In this document: piece after piece, positions 6,799-25,062 of the stretch
Layout of the letters: each line of letters starts with the position of its first letter
Position numbering within the stretch: the stretch's first letter is position 1
Origin: an uncultured Aquifex sp.
Lineage (GTDB): Bacteria > Aquificota > Aquificia > Aquificales > QOAS01
Assembly: GCA_964571355.1 (NCBI GenBank)
Contig: CAZNBH010000001.1
Coordinates: 1 to 28,133, forward strand
Direction: 5' to 3'
Length of the DNA stretch: 28,133 nucleotides
Notes under the pieces: model-generated
The model's database searches: none
What the model was told of the DNA's origin: nothing
The model's input: only the letters and a program-made list of their open reading frames with translations
Program-made: the position numbers and the translations under genes

Positions 6799-7458
6799 TT
6801 AGGGTTTTGGCAAAACCATCCCAAAGCCGTCGATATTTTTCAATCCCAAACCGGTTTCGGAAATGAATTTCAACACCTCCCTCGGGGCGAAAACTTCAAA
6901 ATTCCCCGTAAGGGATTGTAGAGCCCTACCCTTAAAGTTTAGAGGTTTTACCCCGACCTCGAGAGGTTTTATTTCGAGCTTTTCCTCCAAGGGTTTCCCG
7001 TAATAGCTTTGGTACTTTTTGCGGATGTTTTCGACGAGAAACTCCGAAAGGTTCACACCTTCGGGAACCAATACGGGGGAAAGGGTTTTTAATTGAATAA
7101 CCTCGTCGGGAATTTTTACAAAAACCCTCTCCACCGAGAGGATATCGACATCGGTATCTCCCAACCGTAGGTTTTCCTCGAATATCAACCTATTCCTCAA
7201 AGGGGTAAGCTCGCAATCCCTTGGGGTGGCGAAGTAGACCCTAAAGTAGGGGTGGAAATAGAGAAAATTTCCCTCCCTTTTTAGGAACTTTCCAAAAATC
7301 CTCGAAAAGGTAAAGAAGTGGTAAACCTTCCCCTCCGAGGAGCGGGTGGCTATGCACTCCTCAAAAACCTCAAGGAGGAAATTCTTGAGGATACCGTTGT
7401 ACCTTCGGGGGATTTTTAGAGCTTCACCCCTTGCCCTAAAAAGGATTTTTAAAATCAA
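6799..7458 (-). CDS. cas6: Cas6-family RAMP protein, orphan
   Basis: C-terminal G-rich loop TGLGLKNIDGFGMV, FTFSR, KTLSPV and NIRKKY are typical of Cas6. TTG start with an AGGGGT SD-like site upstream. Confidence 0.8.
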   Translation of the reverse strand: MILKILFRARGEALKIPRRYNGILKNFLLEVFEECIATRSSEGKVYHFFTFSRIFGKFLKREGNFLYFHPYFRVYFATPRDCELTPLRNRLIFEENLRLGDTDVDILSVERVFVKIPDEVIQLKTLSPVLVPEGVNLSEFLVENIRKKYQSYYGKPLEEKLEIKPLEVGVKPLNFKGRALQSLTGNFEVFAPREVLKFISETGLGLKNIDGFGMVLPKP

Positions 7459-7469
7459 AGGAATAACCC

Positions 7470-7850
7470 CTAAAGGTTTAGTTTATCGGCGAATTCCTTG
7501 GCGGTATCTCCCCTTAAAACCTCCACCAAACCGGTAAGACCGTCCACCAAATATTTAGCGGGGATACCCTTGGACCTCAAAAAGGTCATCGCTATTATCG
7601 CCCTATCCTTGTGGGGGCAGGCGGTAACTATTAATTTGTCCTTCGGTAGGGTTTGATATTTTTGGGGTAACTCGTTGAGGGGTATATTAATCGAAGGTTG
7701 AACGTTCCAAGTTTTGTACTCCTCTTTAAACCTAATATCCACCAAAAGGGCTTTTCCCTCCTTTAGAGCCTCGACGAGTTGCTTCGCCGAGATTTTCATC
7801 TCCTTGCGGGTTTCGTAGTTGAAGTTTCTTAAAAAGGTTTCCAAATCCAT
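7470..7850 (-). CDS. Single-domain rhodanese/sulfurtransferase
   Basis: LLVDIRFKEEY, SINIPL and active-site loop CPHKDR. Confidence 0.85.
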   Translation of the reverse strand: MDLETFLRNFNYETRKEMKISAKQLVEALKEGKALLVDIRFKEEYKTWNVQPSINIPLNELPQKYQTLPKDKLIVTACPHKDRAIIAMTFLRSKGIPAKYLVDGLTGLVEVLRGDTAKEFADKLNL

Positions 7851-8699: not shown

Positions 8700-9165
8700 T
8701 TTTTTTCTTCTTTTAATACCCTTGTCGGTCTTTTCTTTTGAAATAACCAAAAAAGAGCTTGAAAAAATAGCCTGTTCCCAGTTGAGGAACCTATACTCGA
8801 ATGTAACCTGCAAGGGGATTATCTTTTACGGAAACCGTCTCAAGTTGGAGGGTGAAGGGTACCTCTTTATGGTAAAAAAATCGGGGAATTCCTTCCTCCT
8901 CGAGGTGGTAGACCCGAAAACTCTAAAACCGGTGAGGGTAATACCGATAAAAACCGATTCCACTACGGGGGAAAATCGAAAAAAAGGAATCCCTTACGGG
9001 AAAAAGGTAAAGGTTATTTTCATCAACGGGAACATAAGGATAGAAACGGACGGCGTAGTGGTGGGAAAAGGTTATAGCGATAACACCGTAAAGGTGAAGG
9101 TGGGTAAAAAATACTTTGTAGGAGTTTTACAAAATGAGGATACCGTTGTTGTTAGGCTTTATTAG
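8662..9165 (+). CDS. flgA: Short FlgA-like P-ring assembly chaperone
   Basis: Lies between flgG and flgH. Has a signal peptide ([18 protein letters not shown]) and a C-terminus [33 protein letters not shown] resembling the FlgA C-domain. Confidence 0.6.
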
Positions 9166-9832
9166 TTTGTCCTTTCTTTTTGGGTGCGCCCCACCGGAGC
9201 AAAACCTCCCTCCCCTCAACAAGGATAAAGCCTATACCGACTACGAGAAAACCGTAACAACCCCAAACCCTTATAGGGAACAACCCACCCAGGCGAGTTG
9301 GGGAAACTCCCTTTACAGCGACCGTTTCAACCTTTACAGCGACGTTAAGGCTTATAAGCGGGGAGATATTGTTTACATAATCGTTTACGAGAGTATAGAC
9401 GCCATTCAAAAATTGGCAACCCAAACCGGTCAACAACATCAGGTAAACAATGCTGTAAGTTCCTTTTTCGGGGTTCACCCCGCTACTTTGAGGAATTTGG
9501 GGGTAAACTGGCAATACCAATCGGGGTCCAAATACAGCGGAACCACCCAACAGAGCGGAATCTTGACAACCCGCCTTGCGGCTTATGTTAAAAAGGTTTA
9601 TCCCAACGGGAACCTATTAATAGAGGCGGTTAGATATATAAGGATTAACGAGGCAGGTCACAAGATAATCCTACGGGGAATAGTTAGGCCCGAGGATATA
9701 GGTCCCGATAACTCGGTTCCCTCCTCGAGGATAGCCAACCTCGAAATCATTTATAACGGCAAGGGATATATGGTAGACGCCTCCTCACCCGGTTGGTTTA
9801 CCCGCTTCTTATCCAAAATTTGGCCTTTTTAA
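9134..9832 (+). CDS. flgH: Flagellar L-ring lipoprotein FlgH
   Basis: Lipobox LFGC, LYSDVKAYKRGDIVYI, VYPNGNLLIEA, LRGIVRPEDI and GWFTRFLSKIWPF. Confidence 0.93.
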   Translation: MRIPLLLGFISLSFLFGCAPPEQNLPPLNKDKAYTDYEKTVTTPNPYREQPTQASWGNSLYSDRFNLYSDVKAYKRGDIVYIIVYESIDAIQKLATQTGQQHQVNNAVSSFFGVHPATLRNLGVNWQYQSGSKYSGTTQQSGILTTRLAAYVKKVYPNGNLLIEAVRYIRINEAGHKIILRGIVRPEDIGPDNSVPSSRIANLEIIYNGKGYMVDASSPGWFTRFLSKIWPF

Positions 9833-9939
9833 TTTTAGCAAACTTTTTCTGCGATTTTCCTTATCCTTTTATTTGAAATCCATTTCCACGATATAGCAAT
9901 ATAGGCTTTTAAAGAAAACTTAACAAAAGGGGGATTAAA

Positions 9940-10281
9940 ATGTTGGTAGCCTTTATAGTATTTGTAGTAGCCCTTATAGCTACCGTTGTCCTCTTTTGGC
10001 TTATTGCCCTCCTATACGCCCCTAAGGGTGATTCTGTCGCAAAACACGTTCCCTACGAATGTGCGGTTCCTCCCGAAGGTCCTATGCCTAAAAAATCCAA
10101 CTTTAGGTATTACTTCTTTGGAATTTTGTTCCTCGCAATGGATATGGTCGGAATGTTTATAGCTTTGGAAGTAATAACTAATGGAAAAAACCTATGGATT
10201 TATTTACTCTTTGTAATACCCCTACTCATCGCCATCTGGCACATCATAGGAGGTAAAAGGTATGTTGACCAAGTTTCTTGA
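9940..10281 (+). CDS. nuoA: Complex I-like subunit A (NuoA/FpoA)
   Basis: Three TM helices, loop PYECAVPP and FRYYFFGILFLAMD. Confidence 0.85.
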   Translation: MLVAFIVFVVALIATVVLFWLIALLYAPKGDSVAKHVPYECAVPPEGPMPKKSNFRYYFFGILFLAMDMVGMFIALEVITNGKNLWIYLLFVIPLLIAIWHIIGGKRYVDQVS

Positions 10282-10792
10282 TTTCTTCGGATGGGCAAGG
10301 GCAAACAGCCCGTGGATGGTTCACTACTGCTCGGGCTGTTGCTCTTTGGAAATATTGGCATTGATGGGACCCCGTTTTGACTGGGAGCGTTACGGTTTTC
10401 TCCCCGTTCCCTCGCCGAGGCAAGCCGACTTTATAGTTATAACCGGTTTGATATCCCGTAAAGTTTTGCCCGTTCTATTGATGACCTACGACCAAATGCC
10501 AAAACCCCGTTATGTTTTTGCCATAGGGGCGTGCGCCTTTGACGGAGGTCCTTACTATGACTCCACTTCGGTGGTTACCAACGTTCCCGAAATATTGCCC
10601 CCCGATGTATTTGTAGCCGGATGCCCTCCCACCCCCGAAGCTATTTTGGAAGGTCTATTGGAAATGAAAAAGATAATCCGCGAAAAGAGGGAGGCGAGGG
10701 CCGAAAAGGAAGGCACTTGGAGGGAAATCTTAAAGCAGGAACTCGAAAAGAATCCCTTACTATCGCAACAACCTTTCTTCGTAGGCGGTTAA
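10262..10792 (+). CDS. nuoB: Complex I-like Fe-S subunit B (NuoB / hydrogenase small-subunit family)
   Basis: CSGCCSLE, SPRQADFIVITG, QMPKPRYVFAIGACA and DVFVAGCPPTPEA. Confidence 0.92.
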   Translation: MLTKFLDFFGWARANSPWMVHYCSGCCSLEILALMGPRFDWERYGFLPVPSPRQADFIVITGLISRKVLPVLLMTYDQMPKPRYVFAIGACAFDGGPYYDSTSVVTNVPEILPPDVFVAGCPPTPEAILEGLLEMKKIIREKREARAEKEGTWREILKQELEKNPLLSQQPFFVGG

Positions 10793-10855
10793 ATCTTGAC
10801 AACCTCGGCGGGTTCTTTTTTATCTTATTTTCAATTTTTCCCACGGAGGAGTTAA

Positions 10856-11320
10856 ATGGGCTTCGAAGGTTTTGCCAAGCTTATGAAAACCTATTTTGGG
10901 ATAGAGGGTAAAGAATACCCCCAAAATAGGGTTGCAAAAACCTATCTATTCGAAATACAACCGCAGCATATCAGAGAAGTTGCAAAACTTTTAAAGGAAC
11001 AGGGATTTGTTTTTTTCCATACCTTGGCACCGGTGGATTATTCCCCCAAGGGGAGGGGTTTGGAGCTCAATTACTTCTTTGAAAACCCCGAAGAGGAAAT
11101 TTGGGTTTTAATAAGGACCGAAATCCCTTTGGAGAATCCCGAAATAGACTCCATTCACGACATCTTTCCCGCCCTCGAGGCCTGCGAAAGGGAGGAGTGG
11201 GAAAAGTTTGGAATTCAGTTTAAAGGTCATCCGAGACTTAAACCGATGCTCTTGGACGACACCCTCCAAGGGAAGTGGGTTCAGAGAAAGGCTTACATTC
11301 CCGAACCCCATAGAAAGTAA
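10856..11320 (+). CDS. nuoC: Complex I-like subunit C (NuoC)
   Basis: ELNYFF, IDSIHDIFP and CEREEWEKFGIQFKGHPRL; GGAGGA SD. Confidence 0.88.
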   Translation: MGFEGFAKLMKTYFGIEGKEYPQNRVAKTYLFEIQPQHIREVAKLLKEQGFVFFHTLAPVDYSPKGRGLELNYFFENPEEEIWVLIRTEIPLENPEIDSIHDIFPALEACEREEWEKFGIQFKGHPRLKPMLLDDTLQGKWVQRKAYIPEPHRK

Positions 11321-11331
11321 GGAGGTCGGTT

Positions 11332-12459
11332 ATGTACAAAGGTGCACAGATAATAACGCAAGAAATAGGTCGCGAAGGGGACTTAATGGTCCTCAACTGG
11401 GGTGTTCAGCACCCCGCCTCGGGACCTATGAGGATTAAAGTATGGCTCGACGGGGAGACCATAGTTAAAGTTGAAAACGACCCCGGCTACGTTACCCGCA
11501 ATCTCGAAAAGTTACTCGAATACCGAACCTGGGAAAATGCGGTGGTAAACGTCGAAAGGATTTGCTTTATAGATGACCTCGGAACGATTTTAAACTGGGC
11601 TCTGGCGGTGGAAAAGTTGGCGGAGGTAGAAGTTCCCAAAAATGTTCAATACTTCAGGGTAATCCTTGCAGAGGTGGGGAGGATAGTTTCCCACCTTATA
11701 GGAATAGGTGGTATGTTCGGAGCCCTGGGGGTTGCAACCCCCATGATGTGGGTATTGGCTTTAAGGGAATATTTCCTCGATTTCCTCGAACACTACTCCG
11801 GTTATAGGATTTCCACCGCCGCCATAGTGCCCGGTGGTGTGAGGTTTGAACCCACCAAGGAGGATTTTGAACTCCTCAAAAAGGCTATAGAGGAAACCGA
11901 AAGGCGCTGGCCCGAATACAAAGAGGTGTTTAAAGATAACCCCACCCTTGTGGAGAGGTACAAAGGTGTTGGAGTAATCCCTAAGGAGTTGGTTTATGAA
12001 CTAGGGCTTAGGGGACCCGTTGCAAGGGCTTCCGGTGTCGATTACGACCTTAGGAAAAAGTACCCCTATAGCTCCTACGAGGATTTCGAGTTTAACGTAA
12101 TCGTAAAAGAGGAGGGGGACGCCTACGCGAGATTTCTCGTAGTTCTCGAGGAAATAGAGGAATCACTAAAAATCATTAAGCAGGCTTTGGAAGGTATGCC
12201 CGAAGGGGATAAATGGAAGGTGAGGATGCCCAAGAAGGTAAAAGCCGGAGAAGCCTATTCCGCTGTCGAATGGGCGAGGGGAGGAATGGAGTACTTCGTT
12301 GTAAGCGACGGCGGAACGGGTCCTTATAGGGTAAAAATTTCTGCACCGTCCTTTATGAATATTTGGGCATTGGAAAAAATAGCACCGGGACATAAATTGG
12401 CCGACCTCGCCGCTATATTCGCAAGCCTTTACATTTGCCACGGAGACCTCGATAGATAA
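11332..12459 (+). CDS. nuoD: Complex I-like subunit D (NuoD/FpoD/MbsL family; not a four-Cys NiFe subunit)
   Basis: NWGVQHP, ERICFIDD, VPGGVR, GPVARASGVDYDLRK, EGDAYAR, SDGGTGPYRVKI and C-terminal ICHGDLDR. Confidence 0.92.
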   Translation: MYKGAQIITQEIGREGDLMVLNWGVQHPASGPMRIKVWLDGETIVKVENDPGYVTRNLEKLLEYRTWENAVVNVERICFIDDLGTILNWALAVEKLAEVEVPKNVQYFRVILAEVGRIVSHLIGIGGMFGALGVATPMMWVLALREYFLDFLEHYSGYRISTAAIVPGGVRFEPTKEDFELLKKAIEETERRWPEYKEVFKDNPTLVERYKGVGVIPKELVYELGLRGPVARASGVDYDLRKKYPYSSYEDFEFNVIVKEEGDAYARFLVVLEEIEESLKIIKQALEGMPEGDKWKVRMPKKVKAGEAYSAVEWARGGMEYFVVSDGGTGPYRVKISAPSFMNIWALEKIAPGHKLADLAAIFASLYICHGDLDR

Positions 12460-12472
12460 AGGAGGGGCAGTT

Positions 12473-13429
12473 ATGGAACAAATCAACTGGGGTTGGATTT
12501 TGTTTAAAACCCTTGTGTTTCCCGGGGTAACTTTCCTCCTACTGGTAATCTTTGCAACTTTTTACCTCGAGAGGAAGCTCGTCGCCGACATGCACGGTAG
12601 AACGGGACCTTACTACGTAGGCCCTTACGGAATACTCCAAACGGTTGCCGATATCTTCAAAATCCTCCAAAAGGAAGTAATAATTCACAGGGATGCCGAT
12701 AAGTTTCTATTCCTAATAGTTCCCGCCGTTGCGTTCCTTATGGTTGCCCTTGTAGCCGCCTTTATTCCCTACGACGAAAACCTCTGGATAGTATCGACAC
12801 CGTATGACCTCGTCATCTCGTTGGCACTCCTTACATCGCTACCTGCAATTTTCCTATTTGCGGGATGGGTTTCTAGGAGTAAATACCCCTTCATAGGTGG
12901 GATTAGGGTTATAAACCAGCTAATTTCCGGGGAAATTCCTTTATGGCTGGCGGGATTGTCGGTAGCGTTGTGGTATGGAACCTTTAACTATTTGGAAATC
13001 GTTCATAAATTCGACCTAATAGGCTTTCTGGTAAATCTTGTAGGCTTCGCAATCTTTTTAGTGGCTATTCTTATAGTTGCCGATAGACCTCCCTTCGATA
13101 TTCCCGAAGCGGAACAGGAAATTGTTTACGGGTTCCTAACCGAGTATACAGGGGTTGGTTATCTCCTATTGGCGGGTGCTAAATTCCTCGAAGTTTTCGT
13201 ATTGGCGGCTATGACCGTTACCCTCTTCTTGGGTGGATTTAAAGGTCCTTTTCTTCCCGGATGGGTATGGTTTTTGATAAAGGTATTTGCGGTTTACTAC
13301 CTGGCATTCGCCATTAGGGCTTCTACCCCACGGATTAGGCTCGACCAACTGATAAGGTTTACCTGGATTGTATTGGTTCCTTTAGCGTTGTTAAACATCG
13401 TTTTGATACTCTTAATCAAAGCACTTTAA
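12473..13429 (+). CDS. nuoH: Complex I-like subunit H (NuoH)
   Basis: YLERK...GRTGP, DIFKILQKE and RPPFDIPEAEQE...TEYTG; about 8 TM. Confidence 0.93.
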   Translation: MEQINWGWILFKTLVFPGVTFLLLVIFATFYLERKLVADMHGRTGPYYVGPYGILQTVADIFKILQKEVIIHRDADKFLFLIVPAVAFLMVALVAAFIPYDENLWIVSTPYDLVISLALLTSLPAIFLFAGWVSRSKYPFIGGIRVINQLISGEIPLWLAGLSVALWYGTFNYLEIVHKFDLIGFLVNLVGFAIFLVAILIVADRPPFDIPEAEQEIVYGFLTEYTGVGYLLLAGAKFLEVFVLAAMTVTLFLGGFKGPFLPGWVWFLIKVFAVYYLAFAIRASTPRIRLDQLIRFTWIVLVPLALLNIVLILLIKAL

Positions 13430-13441
13430 AGGAGGTTTAAT

Positions 13442-13900
13442 ATGCTTGGAAGGGTTCTGGAAAAAATAGTTTTAGTAGCAACTAGGGCTGCAAAGCCCAA
13501 AGATACCACTTACATACACGATAAGGATAAAAGACCGGAAAAACCCCAACGTTTTAGGGGAAGGCACGTTATAAACGCAGAAACCTGTATAGGTTGTTAC
13601 GCCTGCGAGAGGGCCTGCCCTATAGGGGCGATTATTATGGTTCCCACCGGATTGAAAAGACCCCGCGCTATGCCGGTTGTTAATTTGGGAAGGTGTTGTT
13701 TTTGCGGACTTTGCGAGGACGCTTGTCCGACCAAGGAGAAATCGATATACCTAACGGAGGATTACGAAATTATGGTTGAAGAAATAGAGCTTACACCTTT
13801 GTTGGACGAGTTATGGGCAAAACCTATAGGGGATATAACCAAAAATCCCCTTGTTATAAAGGATTTACAAAAGGCTAAGGAAAAGAAGGAGGGTAAATAA
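13442..13900 (+). CDS. nuoI: Complex I-like 2x[4Fe-4S] subunit I (NuoI)
   Basis: FRGRH, CIGCYACERACP and CCFCGLCEDACP. Confidence 0.92.
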   Translation: MLGRVLEKIVLVATRAAKPKDTTYIHDKDKRPEKPQRFRGRHVINAETCIGCYACERACPIGAIIMVPTGLKRPRAMPVVNLGRCCFCGLCEDACPTKEKSIYLTEDYEIMVEEIELTPLLDELWAKPIGDITKNPLVIKDLQKAKEKKEGK

Positions 13901-14382
13901 TGCTCCTTTATTTCCTTATATTGTTTACTGTAGTAATAGCCACCGCCGTAGCGGCAATAGAGTTGAACAACCTCATTTGGGTATTGGTGGCATTTGCAAC
14001 CCTTTTAACCGAAATAGCCCTTTTCTATTTCTCCCTCGGTTTTCCCCTGTTGGGGGCTTTTCAATTGGCGGTTTACGCCGGTGGTGTTGCCATACTGGTG
14101 TTATTCGCAATTCTAACCATCGGAGAAAGGGAAGAGGAAAAGAGGGAAAGCAAACTTGCGGCGGGTGTTGCCATAGCCACCTTTATAACCGGACTGATAG
14201 CCTCCATTTGGGCGGGAATCCATACGAAGCCTTACCTCGATATTTCTCTAAAGGAATTGGGTGAGGTTTTTGTGGACAAATATGCCATTCTGGTAATTCC
14301 TTTGGGTTTTACGGCTGTAGGTATCATTTACGGGGCTTATTACTTGCTCGCCAAGAAATTGCAAAAGGAGGAGAGGGAATGA
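13900..14382 (+). CDS. nuoJ: Complex I-like subunit J (NuoJ)
   Basis: Five TM helices, QLAVYAGGVAIL; coupled to nuoI by a TAATG overlap. Confidence 0.85.
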   Translation: MLLYFLILFTVVIATAVAAIELNNLIWVLVAFATLLTEIALFYFSLGFPLLGAFQLAVYAGGVAILVLFAILTIGEREEEKRESKLAAGVAIATFITGLIASIWAGIHTKPYLDISLKELGEVFVDKYAILVIPLGFTAVGIIYGAYYLLAKKLQKEERE

Positions 14383-14690
14383 AGTTCACCCACGAACCGA
14401 TGCTTTGGTTTTTGTTGGTTGCAATTTCCTTAATGGCAATAGGTATCTACGGACTCCTATCGAGGAAATCTATCTTAAAAATGATTATTTCGATAGAGAT
14501 AATCGTAAACGGGGCAAATGTAGGTCTTGCCGCCTTTGCAACCCAACACGGAGCCGACGGGGTTATACTCGCATTTTTTGCAATAGCGCTTGCGGCCTTA
14601 GAGGTAGCGGTAGGTTTGACATTGCTAATTATCCTTGCCCGTAAATATGGTATTACCTTCCCCGAAAAATTAAACAACTTGAGGTGGTAG
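14379..14690 (+). CDS. nuoK: Complex I-like subunit K (NuoK)
   Basis: IGIYGLL, SIEIIVNG and ALEVAVGL (both conserved Glu). Confidence 0.9.
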   Translation: MKFTHEPMLWFLLVAISLMAIGIYGLLSRKSILKMIISIEIIVNGANVGLAAFATQHGADGVILAFFAIALAALEVAVGLTLLIILARKYGITFPEKLNNLRW

Positions 14691-14692
14691 GG

Positions 14693-16525
14693 ATGGAGAG
14701 CCTAATCTACCTATCGGTATTACTACCGATTTTTGGCGCGCCGTTGGTTTGGGCGATAAGCCATTACACCAACAAGTGGTATTCGTGGTACTTATCCCTT
14801 GCCATTACCGGTTTATCTGCCCTTATCGCCTTGGCAACCGTAATCGGTGTAGCCTCCGGTCATATCTATCAGCACTCCTTTACGTGGTTTGAATTCGGAA
14901 ACGTAAAAGTCCCCTTCGGGATTTATGTGGACGGTGTTAGCGCCGTTGTCTATTCCATGGCCGCCCTACTCGGGTTCCTCATAGTTATGTACTCCCGCGG
15001 TTATATGGAGCACGACGAAAGTCCCCATAGGTTCTTTATGAAGGTAACCTTTTTTATCGGCTCTATGCTCGGTCTGACCGTATCGGATAACCTCCTCGGG
15101 ATGTTTATCTTCTGGGAATTCATGGGATTGGCATCTTATCTCCTAATCTCCTACTGGTATTACAGGGAAGCTCCGGCGGCCGCGGGATTGAAAGCCTTTT
15201 TAATGACTAAATTCGCCGATGGCTTCTTCCTTGCGGGGATAATCCTCCTGTGGTGGTATGCCGGAACGCTAAACGTTCCCGAAATAAACCATTTGGCGGA
15301 AACCGCCGCTATACCCGTGATTATTGCCGCAATATCCGCGTTGCTAATGTTCGGCGGAGCTATCGGTAAATCGGCTCAGTTCCCCCTATTCCCATGGCTA
15401 CTGGACGCTATGGAAGGTCCCACTCCGGTGTCGGCATTAATCCACGCCGCAACTATGGTTAACGCCGGGGTGTTTTTGGTGGGCAGGCTCTTCGATTTCT
15501 ACGCCTACTCCAAAGTTCTTTACGTTATCCTCGCGATAGGTGCTCTTTCCGCTTTTATAGCAGTTCTCGGCGCAATGGTTCATAGAGAAATCAAGAAGAT
15601 TATCGCCTTCTCCACCATGGAAAACCTCGGTCTGATGTTTGTTGGTTTGGGAGCCGGTTCACTTGCGGCTGGTCTCTTCCACCTGGTATCCCACGCCACC
15701 TTTAAGGCTTTAATGTTCCTATCGGCGGGTAACGTTATCCACTTCACCCACGAAAAGGATGCGTTCAAACTCCGCGGTCTTATGAAGGTAATGCCCTATA
15801 CCGCAATCCTATTCCTAATAGCCGTGCTATCCCTATCGGGTATTCCCCCTCTAAGTGGATTCTTCTCCAAAGAGTGGATAGTTCACGAGGCAAAAGAGGC
15901 GGGAGACCCTATAGCCTTTGCGTTTGTTCTAACCGCAGCGGTTCTAACTATCTACTACGGCTTTAGGTTGTGGTTCCAAATTTTTACCGGTGAACCCAAT
16001 GAAAAAGCCAAACACGCAAGGGAAGCCTACCCCATAATGTTGATTCCTCTATTTGTATTGGCAACTTTAACCTTCCTTGTGGGTATATTCCATCAACCTA
16101 TAATCCATCTAATAGAGGAACACGCCCACATACCCCACGATTGGGCTTTCACCGCATTGATATTCTCGCTTATGGCTATCGCGTTTGGATTGGCATGGTT
16201 GATTTACTACAAGAGGGCAATCAATACCGAAGAGCTCTTAAAGGACCCTATAATGGCGGTATTGAACAAAACCTTCTATAACGCCTTTTTCGTAGACCAC
16301 ATCCTAAGGTGGCTTTCGAAGAATTTCGTTGTGGAATTCCTCGCATGGTTGGCCCACTGGATAGACCGTAACGTTTACGATTACATCGTCAACGGGGTTG
16401 CCAAAACCGCACTTTGGACTTGGGAAAAGGTTCGTGTTATCCAAACCGGTAACTTAATCCATTACCTAACCATATTCGTTAGTGGTGCGGTAATTCTTTA
16501 CTACCTCTACCTCGTAATACTTTAA
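14693..16525 (+). CDS. nuoL: Complex I-like antiporter subunit L (NuoL)
   Basis: WEFMGLASYLL and GKSAQFPLFPWLLDAMEGPTPVSALIHAATMV, with a long C-terminal helix and final TM. ATG 14693 is preferred over GTG 14684. Confidence 0.93.
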   Translation: MESLIYLSVLLPIFGAPLVWAISHYTNKWYSWYLSLAITGLSALIALATVIGVASGHIYQHSFTWFEFGNVKVPFGIYVDGVSAVVYSMAALLGFLIVMYSRGYMEHDESPHRFFMKVTFFIGSMLGLTVSDNLLGMFIFWEFMGLASYLLISYWYYREAPAAAGLKAFLMTKFADGFFLAGIILLWWYAGTLNVPEINHLAETAAIPVIIAAISALLMFGGAIGKSAQFPLFPWLLDAMEGPTPVSALIHAATMVNAGVFLVGRLFDFYAYSKVLYVILAIGALSAFIAVLGAMVHREIKKIIAFSTMENLGLMFVGLGAGSLAAGLFHLVSHATFKALMFLSAGNVIHFTHEKDAFKLRGLMKVMPYTAILFLIAVLSLSGIPPLSGFFSKEWIVHEAKEAGDPIAFAFVLTAAVLTIYYGFRLWFQIFTGEPNEKAKHAREAYPIMLIPLFVLATLTFLVGIFHQPIIHLIEEHAHIPHDWAFTALIFSLMAIAFGLAWLIYYKRAINTEELLKDPIMAVLNKTFYNAFFVDHILRWLSKNFVVEFLAWLAHWIDRNVYDYIVNGVAKTALWTWEKVRVIQTGNLIHYLTIFVSGAVILYYLYLVIL

Positions 16526-16538
16526 AGGGGGAAGGAAA

Positions 16539-17972
16539 ATGTTGCTAAGTGCGATTTTAATTCCCGTTTTGCTCGCCCCTTTTGCCTATTTCTTCGATAG
16601 GTGGGCAAGATATATATCCCTTGCGGCGGCAATATTCGTAACCTTTGTAGGGGCTTATTTATGGTTTAACTATCCCGGTCAGGGTTTCGCATTTCAGGAG
16701 TTTTATCCGATACTCCCTCAGTGGGATTTTAACCTTCACCTCGGTGTAGATGCCCTTTCGATAGCCCTTATAACCTTGACCGGAATAATCGCAATACTCG
16801 TAACCCTCTCCTCTTGGAATGTGGAACGGGCAGGGGCTTACTTCTTCCTAATCCTCGTATTCCTCGGTGCTATGGTCGGTGTTTTCGCATCGCTAAACTA
16901 CCTGTGGTTTTTCATCTTTTGGGAATTTACCCTCGTTCCCATGTTTTTCCACATAGGGATTTGGGGTGCGGAAAACAGGATTTACGCGGCTGTTAAGTTT
17001 TTCCTATACACCCACCTTGCATCCATATTTATCTTTTTGGCCATTCTCATTATCTTCGTAAACACCGGTCATTTCGATTTCCTCGCCATTAAGCAGGCCA
17101 ACCTACCTATAGATTTGCAAAAAATTATTTGGGCTTTGGCCTTTGTCGGATATATCGTAAAAATGCCCGTTGTTCCCTTCCACACCTGGCTACCCGATGC
17201 CCACGTTCAGGCACCCTCCCCGATTTCGGTAATCCTGGCCGGTTTGCTCCTAAAAATGGGAGCTTACGGTTTGCTCCGTTGGAATATAGAACTCTTTCCC
17301 GAAGCTTCCAAGCATTTCATCTACTTAATGCTTGCCATAGGTTTGCTCACGGTATTCCACGCCGCCTTTAAAGCTCTATACGAGGACCACGTTAAAAGAA
17401 TGGTTGCTTACTCTTCCATCAACCATATGGGTTTAGTCTTGGTGGCATTGGCAACCCTTTCGGCGGTTGGAATAAGTGCAGCCATTTACGAGATGGTAGC
17501 CCACGCCCTAATCATTTCCCTAATGTTTATGATTGCGGGATATATCCACCATATAACCGGAACCTGGTACATCTCCCAAATAGGGGGAGGTTTGTTAAGG
17601 AAGTTTCCCTTTATAGGTACCCTCTATATGCTCGGAGCATTGGGTGCTTTAGGATTTCCCGGAACCGCCGGTTTTATTGGTGAGGTAACCGCTATTTATG
17701 CGGCCTTTGACAAATTCGGTTGGATAGCCTTAGCACTACCTTTCTCCGCGGTATTAACCGCTGGATTCTTCTTCTGGGCTATCAGAAGGATGCTGCACGG
17801 GGAACCCTCCGAATTGGTTAAAAACTTGCATTCCCATCCCCTCCCGGTGGTCGAAAGAATTCCCCTAATGGCTTATGTTGTGCTATTTGTATTGCTCGGC
17901 ATAGTTCCCTCTATACTTTTCGGCTTCATCAATAGCTACGCCAACACCTTAGGAAAAGTATTGGGAGGTTAA
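16539..17972 (+). CDS. nuoM: Complex I-like antiporter subunit M (NuoM)
   Basis: FWEFTLVP, VKMPVVPFHTWLPDAHVQAP, LLKMGAYG and GFIGEV. Confidence 0.93.
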   Translation: MLLSAILIPVLLAPFAYFFDRWARYISLAAAIFVTFVGAYLWFNYPGQGFAFQEFYPILPQWDFNLHLGVDALSIALITLTGIIAILVTLSSWNVERAGAYFFLILVFLGAMVGVFASLNYLWFFIFWEFTLVPMFFHIGIWGAENRIYAAVKFFLYTHLASIFIFLAILIIFVNTGHFDFLAIKQANLPIDLQKIIWALAFVGYIVKMPVVPFHTWLPDAHVQAPSPISVILAGLLLKMGAYGLLRWNIELFPEASKHFIYLMLAIGLLTVFHAAFKALYEDHVKRMVAYSSINHMGLVLVALATLSAVGISAAIYEMVAHALIISLMFMIAGYIHHITGTWYISQIGGGLLRKFPFIGTLYMLGALGALGFPGTAGFIGEVTAIYAAFDKFGWIALALPFSAVLTAGFFFWAIRRMLHGEPSELVKNLHSHPLPVVERIPLMAYVVLFVLLGIVPSILFGFINSYANTLGKVLGG

Positions 17973-17974
17973 CG

Positions 17975-19405
17975 ATGAACTGCGTAATATTCGGCGGAAT
18001 ACTAACCTTGGCCTTTGGAGGATTGTTGGTTCCCGTTATAGGGAACCTTTTTAAACTTTCCCGTTCTTGGCTTCTAAATCTCTATATGGTGGTATTCCTC
18101 ATAGCGGGTCTTTTGTTCCTATACGGTTTTAACCACGGGTCGTTACTGTATCCCAACCTCTTTACAACCGATACGGTTGCCTATCTACTAACCTTATTCG
18201 TTTGGTTTACCGGTGCGGTGGTTCTAATAACGATATTCAACACTTTGAAGGAAATCGAAAATCTTGCGGAAATACTCGGGGTTTATACCATATCCCTTGC
18301 GGGAGCTATTTTGACCCTTTACGCTTCCAATTTCGTTTCGTTCCTCGTCGCTATGGAACTTATGACCATTCCCTCCTACTACCTAATAATGGCAAGGCTT
18401 AACGCGATAACCGCGGAGGCGGCCACTAAATATTTCTTCAACGGAGCACTCTCCACCGGCTTTTTCCTATTCGGTATGTTGGTCATATACGCCCTAACGG
18501 GGTCTTTGGAATTCTCCAAGATTAACGAATTCTTTACCCAAGCCGATACGTTGAGCCTCCTATTTTTCGCCTTTGGATTCATAGGAATACTTTCCGCTAT
18601 AGGTTTTAAAATGTCCTTTGCGCCATACCACTTTTACGCACCCGACGTTTACACCGGTGCGCCCGCCTCCGTTGCGGCTTATCTTGCGGGAATTACCAAA
18701 AGTGCCGTAGCCGTACCGGTAATAAGGATATTCTTCGAAGCTCTGCAGTTTCAAAAGGCCGATTGGGCTATCCTACTCGCCATACTGGCGGTTATCACGA
18801 TGACCGTTGGAAACCTGTTGGCACTGGCCCAACAAAATGTTGCCCGTATACTCGCCTATTCGTCGATAGCCCACGCCGGTTATATCCTTGTGGGTTTTGC
18901 GGCTGCAGCCTCGAGCTTGGCCATTACCGGAATCGTTTACCAAGCCGTCGCCTACATATTGATGAAGGCGGGAGCCTTTCTCATAGTGACCCTACTGATT
19001 TACTACTACGGGATAAAAACCCGCCAAGAGTTAAGGGGTTTTGGAAAGGTTAACCCCTTTATGGCTCTGGTGTTCACCATATTGCTCCTCTCGCTTGCCG
19101 GTGTTCCTCCAACCGCCGGTTTTATAGCCAAGGTTTACCTCTTCCAAGCGGCCGTAGACGCCGGAATGGCTTGGTTGGCGTTTGTAGGGTTGCTAAACTC
19201 CGCCTTTGCGGTCGCCTACTACCTATGGATTATTAAAGAAATGTATCTCGAAGAGCCCCAAACCGTAAAAAAACCCTCCGATACGAGCTTTATAACCCCG
19301 ACTTTGGCAATAGGCTTGCTCGCCGTCCTATCGGTGATATTCGGAATTTGGGTAACCCCCGTGGTAAACGCATCTATAGCCTTTACCAACCTCTTTCCCT
19401 TTTAA
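17975..19405 (+). CDS. nuoN: Complex I-like antiporter subunit N (NuoN)
   Basis: MELMTIPSY, EAATKYF, GFKMSFAPYHFYAPDVYTGAP, LAYSSIAHAGY and SLAGVPPTAGFIAK. Confidence 0.93.
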   Translation: MNCVIFGGILTLAFGGLLVPVIGNLFKLSRSWLLNLYMVVFLIAGLLFLYGFNHGSLLYPNLFTTDTVAYLLTLFVWFTGAVVLITIFNTLKEIENLAEILGVYTISLAGAILTLYASNFVSFLVAMELMTIPSYYLIMARLNAITAEAATKYFFNGALSTGFFLFGMLVIYALTGSLEFSKINEFFTQADTLSLLFFAFGFIGILSAIGFKMSFAPYHFYAPDVYTGAPASVAAYLAGITKSAVAVPVIRIFFEALQFQKADWAILLAILAVITMTVGNLLALAQQNVARILAYSSIAHAGYILVGFAAAASSLAITGIVYQAVAYILMKAGAFLIVTLLIYYYGIKTRQELRGFGKVNPFMALVFTILLLSLAGVPPTAGFIAKVYLFQAAVDAGMAWLAFVGLLNSAFAVAYYLWIIKEMYLEEPQTVKKPSDTSFITPTLAIGLLAVLSVIFGIWVTPVVNASIAFTNLFPF

Positions 19406-20084
19406 GGTTCTTTCCCTTTAAACACCTTTCCCTCAAAGGACAAATATCGCACTTAGGTTCCCTTTTGAGGCAAAAGTTTTTCCCGAGTTCGTCCAACAGC
19501 GCGTGGAACTCCTTATAGACCGGAACATTTTTGGGTAAAAATTCCTCAAACAACCCCTTTGCGGTATCGTAATTAAAACCCCTACCGGTATACCTCTCCA
19601 ACCACCTCAAGGTGTACTTATCTATCACAAAACTCGGAACGTTATAGGCGTATAGGAGTATAACATCGGCGGTTTCCTTTCCAATCCCTTTGACCCTTAA
19701 AAGGTCTCCCCTTTTGGGAATAGCCCCCTTTAGGGAACGGATAAACTTTGCGACCTCCTTTAGGTAAATAGACTTTTGCCTATAGAACCCCGTCGGTTGG
19801 ACGAAAAAATGGAGTTCCTCGAGGGGGATTTTCTCCACAAACCTCAACGATAGTTCGCCGTATTCTTTGAACCTTTCGAGGGAACGCTCGACGTTTTTCC
19901 ACGACGTGTTTTGGGTTAAAACCGCCCCTATAACAATTTCGTCAAAGGGGTTTGTTTTCCTCCGAAGGTGGTAATTCCAATCGATGGGCCACCAGTTTTG
20001 CTTCCCGAAAAAGGATAAAAGGGTTAAATAGACCTCAAAAAGGTCGGCGTTTATCTTTTCCCCCATGGGTCGGAATTCTTCCAA
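19383..20084 (-). CDS. HhH-GPD endonuclease III-related DNA glycosylase with Fe-S cluster loop
   Basis: GAVLTQNTSWKNV, LLRVKGIGKETAD, FVIDKYT and C-terminal CLKREPKCDICPLRERC. Alternative start 20066. Confidence 0.88.
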   Translation of the reverse strand: MEEFRPMGEKINADLFEVYLTLLSFFGKQNWWPIDWNYHLRRKTNPFDEIVIGAVLTQNTSWKNVERSLERFKEYGELSLRFVEKIPLEELHFFVQPTGFYRQKSIYLKEVAKFIRSLKGAIPKRGDLLRVKGIGKETADVILLYAYNVPSFVIDKYTLRWLERYTGRGFNYDTAKGLFEEFLPKNVPVYKEFHALLDELGKNFCLKREPKCDICPLRERCLKGKNLKRERGW

Positions 20085-20126
20085 ACCTTTAAGGGGATAA
20101 GGATAAGGGAAAACCTTTAAAGGGGA

Positions 20127-20624
20127 CTACTCCCCGTAATATTCCGCCTTAGAAGTTGCGGTTTCCCATACCGCCACCTTTACCACCGAAACGTCCTTTA
20201 CACCCGCCTCTTTAAATTTTTGTTCTAAGTATTTATAGATAAACTCCGCCAACCGCTCCGCGGTTGGGACAAAGTCGACGACAAAGAGCTTTAAACCGAA
20301 CTGCTCCGCCATTTCCTTCAACTTGGGAAATAGGGGGTCGTTCTTATCGACTATAAAGGAGTGGTCGAGGCGGTAGTCTATTAGCTCCCTAATGGCACTC
20401 TTTAGGTGGTAAAAATCCATAACCATATCGGCGTCCAACGTATCGGAACCGATGGTAATCTCCACCACGTAGCTATGACCGTGTAAATGGCGGCACTTGT
20501 TCTCGGGGGGGCAAGCGTTCCCACTGAGGGATGAACCCCTACCTTGGGCTAAATTTTGATTCCAAACCCTATGTCCCGCCTCGAAGCGGTAAACCTTCGT
20601 AATTTCGTACCTAAAGCGTTTCAT
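20127..20624 (-). CDS. queD: 6-carboxytetrahydropterin synthase QueD (PTPS family)
   Basis: FEAGH, CRHLHGHSY, MVMDFYHLK, LDH, PTAERLA and VWET. Confidence 0.88.
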   Translation of the reverse strand: MKRFRYEITKVYRFEAGHRVWNQNLAQGRGSSLSGNACPPENKCRHLHGHSYVVEITIGSDTLDADMVMDFYHLKSAIRELIDYRLDHSFIVDKNDPLFPKLKEMAEQFGLKLFVVDFVPTAERLAEFIYKYLEQKFKEAGVKDVSVVKVAVWETATSKAEYYGE

Positions 20625-23799: not shown

Positions 23800-25062
23800 C
23801 TATACAAAGACCCCCTCCAGGGGTGCGGGTTCCAGTTTATCCCCTAAATAGGGATGTAGTTCGAGCAAATAATCCTTTCCGAGGTTATAACTTTGAGCCC
23901 CGAGAACCGCAAGGGTAATCCTTCCGCTTTTGATTTCCCCGAGGTGTTCTTTAATAAATTCCTCCACCTCTTGGGGGTTTACCCCTTCCCCACCAAAGGT
24001 GGTATCGGCGGGTATGAAATAGACCTTTTCGGGGTTTTCCAAATTACCGATTAACAGATTGCGGGACTTTACAAACTGCACCCTCACCTCGAGGGTGGCG
24101 GAAATCCGGTTTTCCCTTAGAAGGTTCTCGTATTTTTTCTCCACCAAAAAGGTCGGATTTGATAGACCTACCCCCTTTAGGGGATAGCCCTTTAGTTCCT
24201 CCACCAGTTCTATAACTACGTTTTGCCTGTTTAGGTAGAGCCTATTTTCCACCTTCCTTACAACGTCCCCCTTTGCGACCCCCCTAATCGGTGCAGAAAA
24301 GGGTTTTATCAACGAGGGGATAACCTTTTTAAGTTTCGGTATCTCTATCTTTCCCCTCAAAGGGAACCACCCCAAGAATTGGAATTCCTCCTCCTTGGTG
24401 GGTAGTTCCAAAAGTTCGGCAAACACCTTGAGGGTTCTAATAAAAATGTGTTCCTCCTTGGTTCCCGGTATTCTCCCGTAAAACCCCACGAGGTCCAAAA
24501 AGGAGTTTTCCCCCTTTTGTTGGAGTAGGGCAAACATACACCCGCAGTAGTCCTGCCTCCAAATTTCGAGCTCCTTTACGAGTTTGTTCATTTCCTGAAC
24601 GCCGCCCTTTTTGCGGTAATCCTTGAAGATGAATTCGACCCCGTAGAGGTTCTCCAGTTTCTTTCCCACCTTTTGGAGTTGCTCCTGACTCTTTTTCGGG
24701 GACATAAGGAGGGTTGTTGTAAAGGCGTCGCACCCGAGCTCCTTGGCGAGTTTTACCGAGCTCTCGAGGCGGTCGTCGAAGCACAAAACGCACCTAGCCC
24801 CCTTTTCCGGCTCGTTTTCGTAGCCCTTTACCCTTTTTAGCCACCCCTCAAGGTTATAATCCCCCTCTATAAATTCAATTCCCAGAAGGTGGCAAGCCCT
24901 CTCGCTCTCCTTCAAACGGAGTAAATATTCCTCATAGGGGTGTATATTGGGGTCGTAAAAGTAACCGATAATTTCGGCGTCTGGGTAATCTTCCCTAAGC
25001 CTTTTTAAAAAATAAATCGCGTCGACCGCGCAACAAATGTGGGCTAAAATCTTTTTGGGCAT
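23800..25062 (-). CDS. queH: Epoxyqueuosine reductase QueH with long C-terminal extension
   Basis: HICCAVD, YDPNIHPYEEY, RCVLCF, TTLLMSPKK and RQDYCGC within the first 180 aa, then about 240 extra aa. Confidence 0.85.
   Translation of the reverse strand: MPKKILAHICCAVDAIYFLKRLREDYPDAEIIGYFYDPNIHPYEEYLLRLKESERACHLLGIEFIEGDYNLEGWLKRVKGYENEPEKGARCVLCFDDRLESSVKLAKELGCDAFTTTLLMSPKKSQEQLQKVGKKLENLYGVEFIFKDYRKKGGVQEMNKLVKELEIWRQDYCGCMFALLQQKGENSFLDLVGFYGRIPGTKEEHIFIRTLKVFAELLELPTKEEEFQFLGWFPLRGKIEIPKLKKVIPSLIKPFSAPIRGVAKGDVVRKVENRLYLNRQNVVIELVEELKGYPLKGVGLSNPTFLVEKKYENLLRENRISATLEVRVQFVKSRNLLIGNLENPEKVYFIPADTTFGGEGVNPQEVEEFIKEHLGEIKSGRITLAVLGAQSYNLGKDYLLELHPYLGDKLEPAPLEGVFV

Follow-up and report, generated by a model that had tools for sequence, protein, structure and literature searches.

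A headless 11-gene complex-I-like operon in an uncultured Aquificales genus and its relation to the ancestral NUO11/NUO10 lineage

A previous study identified the most ancestral nuo operons as the NUO11 type of Desulfurobacterium and Thermovibrio and the NUO10 type of Nautiliales, in which NuoD keeps the first and third NiFe cysteines and lacks the quinone residues and NuoB has a hydrogenase-like cluster motif, and proposed an mbx-like ferredoxin function (Degli Esposti, 2015; PMC4758237). A partial NUO had been reported in Nautilia, with reverse electron transport proposed (Campbell et al.; PMC2628731), and a second Thermovibrio cluster without EFG was found to be conserved in Desulfurobacterium and Caminibacter (Giovannelli et al.; PMC5441870). 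This operon type has also been regarded as the ancestral campylobacterial form (preprint 10.1101/717884). The clade further includes the NUO10 of some Sulfurovum and Sulfurimonas. No biochemical characterisation of any clade member was found in the literature searched, and to our knowledge an enzyme of this lineage has never been purified. Here, we analysed a stretch of 28,133 nucleotides from an uncultured Aquifex sp. (GenBank assembly GCA_964571355.1, contig CAZNBH010000001.1, positions 1–28,133, forward strand), hereafter the window, which carries an 11-gene complex-I-like operon without genes for an NADH-input module. Judged from its predicted proteins, the operon is a member of the ancestral NUO11/NUO10 lineage known from Desulfurobacteriaceae and Nautiliales-type Campylobacterota; what is new is the occurrence of this known lineage in a new Aquificales family.

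The operon, its lineage and the missing input module

Positions 9940–19405 are filled by 11 contiguous open reading frames (ORFs) on the plus strand, and each product matched the expected Pfam or NCBIfam family in the order A, B, C, D, H, I, J, K, L, M, N. The nuoC and nuoD genes are unfused, no gene intervenes between nuoD and nuoH, and nuoE, nuoF and nuoG are absent from the operon. Intergenic distances range from -20 to +63 nt, and GGAGG-type ribosome sites precede most of the genes. The 11 genes are as follows.

9940–10281, plus strand: nuoA, 113 aa, membrane subunit with the loop between transmembrane helices 1 and 2 (Oxidored_q4, PF00507; E value, 2e-10)
10262–10792, plus strand: nuoB, 176 aa, carrier of the proximal [4Fe-4S] cluster (Oxidored_q6, PF01058; NF005012, 178 bits)
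10856–11320, plus strand: nuoC, 154 aa, separate from nuoD (Complex1_30kDa, PF00329; E value, 8e-24)
11332–12459, plus strand: nuoD, 375 aa (Complex1_49kDa, PF00346; NF004739, 370 bits against a cut-off of 360)
12473–13429, plus strand: nuoH, 318 aa, membrane anchor of the peripheral arm (NADHdh, PF00146; E value, 2e-86)
13442–13900, plus strand: nuoI, 152 aa, two [4Fe-4S] clusters (two matches to Fer4 families; TIGR01971)
13900–14382, plus strand: nuoJ, 160 aa (Oxidored_q3, PF00499)
14379–14690, plus strand: nuoK, 103 aa (Oxidored_q2, PF00420; NF004320, 76.9 bits against a cut-off of 57)
14684–16525, plus strand: nuoL, 613 aa, antiporter-like with a long C-terminal region (PF00662 and PF00361; TIGR01974, 479 bits)
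16539–17972, plus strand: nuoM, 477 aa, antiporter-like (Proton_antipo_M; TIGR01972, 402 bits)
17975–19405, plus strand: nuoN, 476 aa, antiporter-like (Proton_antipo_M, PF00361; E value, 1e-59)

An earlier note, written from the sequence alone, had described this contiguous gene order with separate C and D, and flanks free of a donor module, with flgH upstream and a convergent DNA glycosylase downstream. Both descriptions held, all 11 genes being recovered by Pfam or NCBIfam, and the observation of a headless 11-gene complex-I-like operon is thereby confirmed as real.

All 11 subunits are closest to those of the Desulfurobacterium thermolithotrophum operon (36–68% identity, NuoA having 36%), followed by those of Nautilia (32–63%); NuoB and NuoH are 68 and 61% identical to their Desulfurobacterium counterparts. 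Window NuoD shares 90–95% identity within the genus, 55–61% with Desulfurobacteriaceae, 42–47% with the fused NuoCD of Nautilia, Caminibacter, Sulfurovum and Sulfurimonas, and only 31–39% with the fused NuoCD of other Aquificales. Among 1.8 billion representatives, the next cluster beyond the clade stood at just 40% identity. The survey of Aquificota genomes that the note had called for (178 genomes) found the operon type in all eight genomes of the window's family and in 23 of 28 Desulfurobacteriaceae (at least 55% identity); in the other two large families, none of 90 and none of 50 genomes exceeded 39%.

A phylogeny was inferred from NuoD only, the other subunits being compared by identity. 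Sequences were classed by motif, by cluster name (P0144, Methanosarcina FpoD) and by operon context (P0155, of the MBS/MBX type with an Mrp module), and the tree was rooted on four-Cys group-4 hydrogenases. The window NuoD clade, with the Desulfurobacterium and Nautilia sequences, was monophyletic (support 100/99), and within it the Aquificota members (98/92) were sister to the Campylobacterota members. All sequences with His38 and Tyr87, including an ordinary Aquificales NuoCD, formed a separate clade (97/87). The note had named nesting of the subunits within ordinary Aquificae Nuo clades as a finding that would count against its reading; union with ordinary Aquificales NuoCD was rejected by the approximately unbiased (AU) test (p = 9.4e-5). 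Union with Fpo (p = 0.108) or with MBS-like sequences (p = 0.27) was not rejected, and the backbone among the window clade, Fpo, the MBS-like sequences and other two-Cys headless types lacked resolution, although free NuoD trees did not group the window clade with FpoD. Further two-Cys NuoD proteins likewise come from headless Nuo-type operons.

The operon layouts of D. thermolithotrophum, D. pacificum and Nautilia were compared with that of the window. The ancestral NUO11/NUO10 operons have the identical order A-B-C-D-H-I-J-K-L-M-N without E, F or G, and share with the window a NuoD signature (PAS-GP loop, ERICF-xD and C[HQ]GDxDR) and the NuoB motif H[YF]CSGCCSLE. In contrast to these relatives, the window host belongs to a separate Aquificales family with genomes of 1.0–1.4 Mb and uses quinol enzymes for the respiration of nitrate and O2; it is not an obligate sulfur reducer. 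NuoF was not detected in its genus, whereas D. thermolithotrophum and T. ammonificans encode nuoEFG elsewhere in the genome. Window NuoB also has a 20-aa C-terminal extension, and its C and D subunits are unfused, whereas those of Nautiliales are fused.

These comparisons do not sustain the archaeal-style or Fpo-like framing under which the operon had first been presented. Its nearest relatives are bacterial, the Desulfurobacteriaceae and the Campylobacterota; the order from A-B-C-D-H to N is the usual bacterial NUO11 order; every Fpo NCBIfam model scored far below its cut-off; and FpoF was not found in the genus genomes searched. Nor is this an undescribed respiratory system, as had been suggested, since the clade with its two-Cys NuoD and odd NuoB motif is included in a previous study (PMC4758237) and the headless operon had already been noted in Nautilia (PMC2628731) and Thermovibrio (PMC5441870).

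To what extent the complex lacks an input module was examined at the level of the genus. The window forms contig 1 of a metagenome-assembled genome (MAG) of 1.04 Mb in 221 contigs that is 85% complete, and seven congeneric genomes are 88–95% complete. The MAG has a single Complex1_49kDa (nuoD) locus. NuoF (Complex1_51K) was not found in the MAG or its seven congeners, whereas every one of the 33 genomes sampled in the two sister families of the order had it. The sole match to the NuoE profile (2Fe-2S_thioredx) in the MAG was a thioredoxin-like [2Fe-2S] ferredoxin of approximately 105 aa (G000:C88, 1181–1513, minus strand) and was rejected as NuoE on inspection; a NuoG-motif match was discarded as a spurious small ORF. 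No real NuoE or NuoG, and no FpoF/FrhB (PF04432), was found in the five genus genomes searched (the MAG and four congeners). The check proposed in the note, for nuoEFG, fpoF or a second nuo set elsewhere in the genome, thus came back empty, with one nuoD locus only in the 85%-complete MAG. No gene was conserved beside the operon across D. thermolithotrophum, D. pacificum, a metagenomic relative and Nautilia; DsrE follows nuoN in D. thermolithotrophum and was not found beside the operon in the three further relatives. The operon, the conserved flanks of its relatives and the genus genomes all being without a donor module, these results support a truly headless complex.

The operon genes are intact and under strong purifying selection. 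The dN/dS ratios of all 11 genes against congener G001 were 0.02–0.07, dS being near saturation and the ratios accordingly rough. The operon also appears to be transcribed in situ: contigs from two hydrothermal-vent metatranscriptome libraries lay on it at 95% identity or more, mainly at nuoL–N, which is contig-level evidence without strand or expression level. No metatranscriptome contig lay on the adjacent 19.9–20.7 kb, although matching DNA libraries covered that stretch evenly.

Pocket, cluster and pump residues compared with known systems

NuoD was aligned with Thermus Nqo4 and Pyrococcus MbsL. The quinone head-group residues are missing from window NuoD: His38 is deleted (QHPAS-GPMR), Tyr87 is replaced by Phe79 (ERICFID) and Asp139 by Ala131. 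The protein has two cysteines only, Cys78 and Cys369, at NiFe ligand positions 1 and 3 (86 and 403 in Thermus numbering); positions 2 and 4 are Asp81 and Asp372, and the canonical NuoD insertion is absent. This signature of two cysteines and a missing triad was invariant in all 15 clade sequences examined. With two cysteines, window NuoD does not have the four-Cys NiFe ligand set of group 4 hydrogenases (Ech, energy-converting hydrogenase, and Mbh), all four of which are present in the true Ech of congener G001.

NuoB carries the motifs HYCSGCCSLE, GAC and GCPP, the first of which is common to the window, Desulfurobacterium and Nautilia. Its CC pair aligned without gaps to the N2-ligand CC of NdhK/PSST, and all four N2 cysteines, this pair included, align to NdhK/PSST. 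The loop is as short as in the MBS-type homologue MbsJ (FYCTGCGAVE) and unlike that of Ech (TGSCNGCDIE), and the extra first Cys aligned with the Cys that opens the MbsJ-type CxxC. NuoB would thus combine the short CxxC loop of MBS with an adjacent Cys (CxxCC) that could serve as fourth cluster ligand. Taken together, the D subunit looks MBS/Fpo-like, and the B subunit appears complex-I-like with an MBS relic.

NuoI contains two CxxCxxCxxxCP motifs, a basic N-terminus and a Lys/Glu-rich C-terminal tail that is also found in Desulfurobacterium and Nautilia, and is presumed to be the docking and entry site for ferredoxin. The loop between transmembrane helices 5 and 6 of NuoH is canonical, with the sequence PFDIPEAEQEIVYGFLTEYTG. 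In the membrane arm, E144, K234, K265 and E407 of Escherichia coli NuoM all aligned to identical residues in window NuoM, both membrane glutamates of NuoK are present (SIEII and ALEVA), and equivalent Glu/Lys motifs were read from the sequences of NuoK, NuoL and NuoN. From this inventory, the operon would encode a complete, self-contained proton-translocating machine of the complex I type without an NADH module.

Among the systems compared, the membrane-bound sulfane reductase MBS and its relative MBX of Thermococcales (PDB 6U8Y; PMC7684303) are headless like the window operon, and MBS is fed by ferredoxin. MbsL aligned with window NuoD end to end, lacks His38, Tyr87 and the NuoD insertion, and has the same two cysteines (RIC... 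and C..D.DR; C85 and C385 of MbsL, PMC7684303), and MbsJ has the same short loop as window NuoB, which has a Cys at the C25 position of MbsJ. MBS differs in its Mrp-type Na+/H+ module and its two antiporter-like subunits, in the lack of the NuoA/J/L/M/N set and in the lack of the complex-I tandem Cys that window NuoB adds. Window NuoD is also less similar to MBS (217 bits) than to Nqo4 (256 bits). Membership in MBS was rejected: the Mrp module (MnhE/F/G and MbhD/E homologues) is not in the operon, which has NuoA/J/K/L/M/N only.

The F420H2:methanophenazine oxidoreductase Fpo of Methanosarcinales is built on 11 homologous core subunits whose order is similar, and its FpoD (P0144) also keeps two vestigial cysteines (DRICY and CTSEADR). 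FpoD, however, has Tyr at position 87, where window NuoD has Phe, and in a quick tree Fpo grouped with the quinone-type clade, apart from the window clade (SH-like approximate likelihood ratio test, 94). Scores against the Fpo NCBIfam models were all below the cut-offs (FpoC, 64/220; FpoD, 284/600; FpoH, 176/475; FpoI, 55/180; FpoK, 75/145; FpoL, 365/1050), and with FpoF not found in the five genus genomes, Fpo membership was rejected.

The quinone-type 11-subunit enzymes (cyanobacterial and plastid NDH-1, and the NUO11 of Chlorobi and Firmicutes) have the same core subunits without the N-module, and ferredoxin is their donor where studied; they differ from the window operon in having the His38/Tyr87 pocket and in their placement in the quinone clade. 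NDH-1 has extra ferredoxin-docking subunits, whereas the window operon has no extra small genes, although no search for NdhS, NdhV or NdhO was made. The canonical Aquificales complex I (Aquifex, PDB 7Q5Y) occurs in the same bacterial order, has homologous subunits and shares with the window operon the tandem-Cys N2 cluster and the antiporter-like Glu/Lys residues. It differs in its fused NuoCD, His/Tyr pocket and NuoEFG, which the window lacks.

Two further NuoD types were observed in the course of these comparisons. P0123, P0124, P0148, P0149, P0197 and P0238 form a well-supported NuoD-like group with a GSGHMR loop, ERPxx where the Tyr/Cys motif would stand and a C-terminal YFPPEADR, which lacks both the NiFe cysteines and the His/Tyr pocket. 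On a metagenomic contig (L041, 5514–16824), a headless nuo set has the order A (minus strand), J, K, B, C, D, H, I, with four antiporter-like genes after I. The two-Cys and Phe signature recurs in the NuoD of this contig (P0122), which is 40% identical to window NuoD.

Candidate function and alternatives

The gene content of the MAG provides the metabolic setting of the operon. The sole hydrogenase found is a group-1 NiFe enzyme with a cytochrome b subunit and is quinone-linked. The MAG also encodes a respiratory NarGHI, a NasA-like reductase adjoining a ferredoxin-nitrite reductase, cytochrome bd (loci of this respiratory inventory, hydrogenase included: G000:C9, 44–6590; C89; C81; C75), ATP-citrate lyase, two enzymes of the pyruvate or 2-oxoglutarate:ferredoxin oxidoreductase (POR/OGOR) type and CCG-domain (Hdr-like) proteins. 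Five genus genomes yielded no haem-copper oxidase, and Rnf was not found in the MAG or its seven congeners; MvhD/FlpD, Ech and a Psr-type enzyme were not found in the MAG.

Ech is present in some of the congeners. In G001 and G003, a block of approximately 6.8 kb between flgH and nuoA (L019, G001:C58, 3207–9726) holds a gene resembling INO1 (inositol-3-phosphate synthase) and a six-gene Ech-type [NiFe] hydrogenase with A–F homologues and all four NiFe cysteines. In the window (9832–9940) and in G004, flgH leads directly to nuoA without this block; G005 has a related Ech cluster on another contig, and the INO1-like gene of the MAG lies on contig C128. The position of Ech beside nuoA in congeners is a hint from gene neighbourhood that ferredoxin is a shared substrate.

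A ferredoxin-linked ion pump had been suggested in the earlier note, running forward or in reverse to make reduced ferredoxin for an autotroph using the reductive tricarboxylic acid (rTCA) cycle. The genome content fits this suggestion, including the reverse direction, the fit being one of gene content. In the mechanism we propose, a peripheral arm of B, C, D and I would sit on an anchor of H and A, and a membrane arm of J, K, L, M and N would hold three antiporter-like pumps. A small acidic [4Fe-4S] ferredoxin would dock directly on NuoI, and the two NuoI clusters would relay electrons to the NuoB cluster, whose ligand cysteines are present. From that cluster, in the B/D/H pocket, they would be exchanged with a hydrophobic carrier. 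The most likely candidate is the naphthoquinone pool, which would be bound without the classical His/Tyr/Asp triad and perhaps, speculatively, through the clade-invariant Asp81. The exchange would be coupled to proton movement through L, M and N and the H/J/K channel, where the pump residues are conserved.

Since the only hydrogenase found is quinone-linked, H2 would enter at the quinone level, with the cytochrome-b-linked hydrogenase feeding the pool and NarGHI and cytochrome bd oxidising quinol. Both the rTCA cycle and the assimilation of nitrite depend on reduced ferredoxin, and the complex would run backwards, the proton-motive force pushing quinol electrons to ferredoxin; the direction would be reversible when ferredoxin is over-reduced. 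A ferredoxin-linked reverse pump appears the likeliest role because the quinone-linked hydrogenase, NarGHI and cytochrome bd occur with ATP-citrate lyase, POR/OGOR and ferredoxin-nitrite reductase and without Ech or Rnf; apart from the headless complex, no candidate was found for coupling the proton-motive force to an uphill transfer of electrons from quinol to ferredoxin. With both directions taken together, the enzyme is probably a reversible ferredoxin:quinone proton pump, and we give about even chances to the narrower claim that its main role is the reverse one, from quinol to ferredoxin.

The energetics can be compared with the size of the membrane arm. Ferredoxin lies at approximately -450 mV and menaquinone at approximately -75 mV, a span of approximately 370 mV that is enough for approximately 4 H+/2 e-. 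Polysulfide lies at approximately -260 mV, and its span to ferredoxin of approximately 190 mV fits the two-pump MBS and not an arm with three antiporters. A yield of approximately 4 H+/2 e- would match the three-antiporter arm, so that a ferredoxin–menaquinone couple would fit the complex and a ferredoxin–polysulfide couple would not. Ferredoxin is known to feed the headless NDH-1 (PMC11238625).

Several points weigh against this proposal. The main objection is that NuoD lacks His38, Tyr87 and Asp139, so that a quinone would need another mode of binding and protonation; in a previous study the missing residues were taken to mean no quinone reactivity (Degli Esposti, 2015; PMC4758237). The two-Cys NuoD signature and the short proximal-cluster loop of NuoB are shared with the MBS sulfane reductase. 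Small ferredoxin ORFs were not found in the MAG assembly, from which the motifs of the PorD-type subunit are missing too; a 72-aa single-cluster [4Fe-4S] (Fer4_13) ferredoxin is seen only in congeners, four of which carry it (L040, 1477–1695, minus strand), and a gap in the assembly probably explains why the MAG lacks it. When window NuoI was folded together with the 72-aa ferredoxin of congener G001, the score was 0.02, which speaks neither for nor against binding. At 85% completeness, the absences of Ech and Rnf from the MAG are unproven, although that of Rnf is backed by the congeners and that of Ech by the intact flgH–nuoA junction. The CCG-domain proteins could also be part of another route of ferredoxin reduction.

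The question bears on wider issues. The lineage sits in the poorly resolved zone between the hydrogenase-derived MBS, Fpo and true complex I, and for this reason its substrate and direction matter for the origin of quinone reactivity and for ferredoxin supply. How H2-oxidising rTCA autotrophs that feed their electrons into quinone obtain reduced ferredoxin is a long-standing gap for Aquificota and Campylobacterota. With the headless operon as its only complex-I-like enzyme, the genus is the cleanest natural case so far. NuoF was not found in eight genomes, Rnf and, in the MAG, Ech were not found, and the respiratory enzymes identified are all quinone-linked; these observations sharpen the hypothesis of reverse electron flow, although the idea itself is not new and the organism is uncultured.

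Of the alternatives, the closest keeps the same enzyme and substrates and makes the physiological job the forward one, from ferredoxin to quinone with protons pumped out, as in cyanobacterial NDH-1 or the 11-subunit enzyme of Desulfitobacterium. Reduced ferredoxin would come from Ech, from POR/OGOR turnover or by another route. Other 11-subunit enzymes are documented to work in this direction (PMC11238625), the pump residues have been retained, and the Ech adjoining nuoA in G001 and G003 would give a chain from H2 through ferredoxin to quinone. However, the MAG and G004 have no Ech at the flgH–nuoA site and none was found in the MAG assembly, the only hydrogenase found in the MAG already reduces quinone directly, and an obligate rTCA autotroph, on balance, consumes reduced ferredoxin and does not supply it. 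We regard a forward main role as possible and rather unlikely.

The pocket between B and D might instead be non-quinone, the complex being a ferredoxin-driven reductase of an acceptor such as polysulfide or organic sulfane sulfur with MBS-type chemistry on a complex-I-type arm. NuoD has lost His38, Tyr87 and Asp139 and keeps exactly the two MbsL cysteines (PMC7684303), the NuoB loop is of MBS length with the MbsJ-type first Cys, and the AU test tolerated union with MBS-like sequences (p = 0.27). The clade carriers Desulfurobacterium and Nautilia are sulfur reducers (PMC4758237), DsrE stands after nuoN in D. thermolithotrophum, and a rhodanese gene lies 2 kb upstream of the window operon. Against these points, the tandem CC of NuoB would allow four-Cys ligation, whereas the catalytic MBS cluster is a three-Cys one; the Mrp sodium module is not in the operon; the span from ferredoxin to polysulfide would be too small for three antiporters; DsrE is not conserved beside the operon; and the MAG shows nitrate and O2 respiration without a Psr-type enzyme or an independent source of reduced ferredoxin. 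A non-quinone acceptor is accordingly quite unlikely. The same low probability is given to a broader version, in which the clade would be a living intermediate between MBS and complex I with a pocket that turns over a non-quinone substrate such as sulfane sulfur or binds a metal. Its features would be the Cys-Asp-Cys-Asp at the former NiFe site, the Phe in place of the quinone Tyr, the CxxCC cluster and the full three-antiporter arm and, if true, it would represent a reaction type not yet known for enzymes of complex I architecture.

The 11 subunits might also serve as a platform on which a detachable partner docks, the genes for that partner lying elsewhere; a hydrogenase, a formate dehydrogenase and a flavoprotein are examples. 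Electrons would then pass from quinol to NAD(P)H, or from the partner to quinone, with no link to ferredoxin. For the Nautilia operon, a reverse role yielding NAD(P)H has been proposed (PMC2628731), the idea of several partners for 11-subunit enzymes is quoted in PMC11238625, and D. thermolithotrophum has a separate nuoGFE operon (PMC12724263). However, the NuoF family was not found in the eight genus genomes nor FpoF in the five searched, no neighbouring gene is conserved across the clade, and MBH, MBS and NDH-1 take ferredoxin directly at the NuoI homologue (PMC7684303), all of which makes this arrangement very unlikely. An ordinary NADH:quinone complex I with nuoEFG in the unassembled 15% of the MAG, as its 85% completeness and 221 contigs might allow, is extremely improbable, given that the seven more complete congeners also lack the NuoF found in all 33 sister-family genomes and that NuoD is without the quinone triad and outside the canonical clade.

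Flanking genes and minor observations

Consensus scans of 9000–20200 for promoters and terminators returned sites no commoner than in shuffled sequences, an Rfam scan of the window gave no match, and base composition showed no sign of recent transfer. On the 5' side the operon is preceded by flgG, an unassigned ORF and flgH (9134–9832), and on the 3' side it is followed by the convergent HhH-GPD glycosylase (19383–20084, minus strand) and then by PTPS, AcrB and QueH.

A lone Cas6-family ORF (6799–7458, minus strand; Cas_Cas6_C, E value, 1e-16) was found with no further cas gene among the nearby ORFs scanned, and it adjoins the rhodanese ORF (7470–7850, minus strand) that lies approximately 2 kb upstream of the operon. 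The match of the QueH-type ORF (23800–25062, minus strand, 420 aa) is limited to residues 5–179; its C-terminal part of approximately 240 aa has no Pfam match, and the ORF may represent a fusion or a mis-called start.

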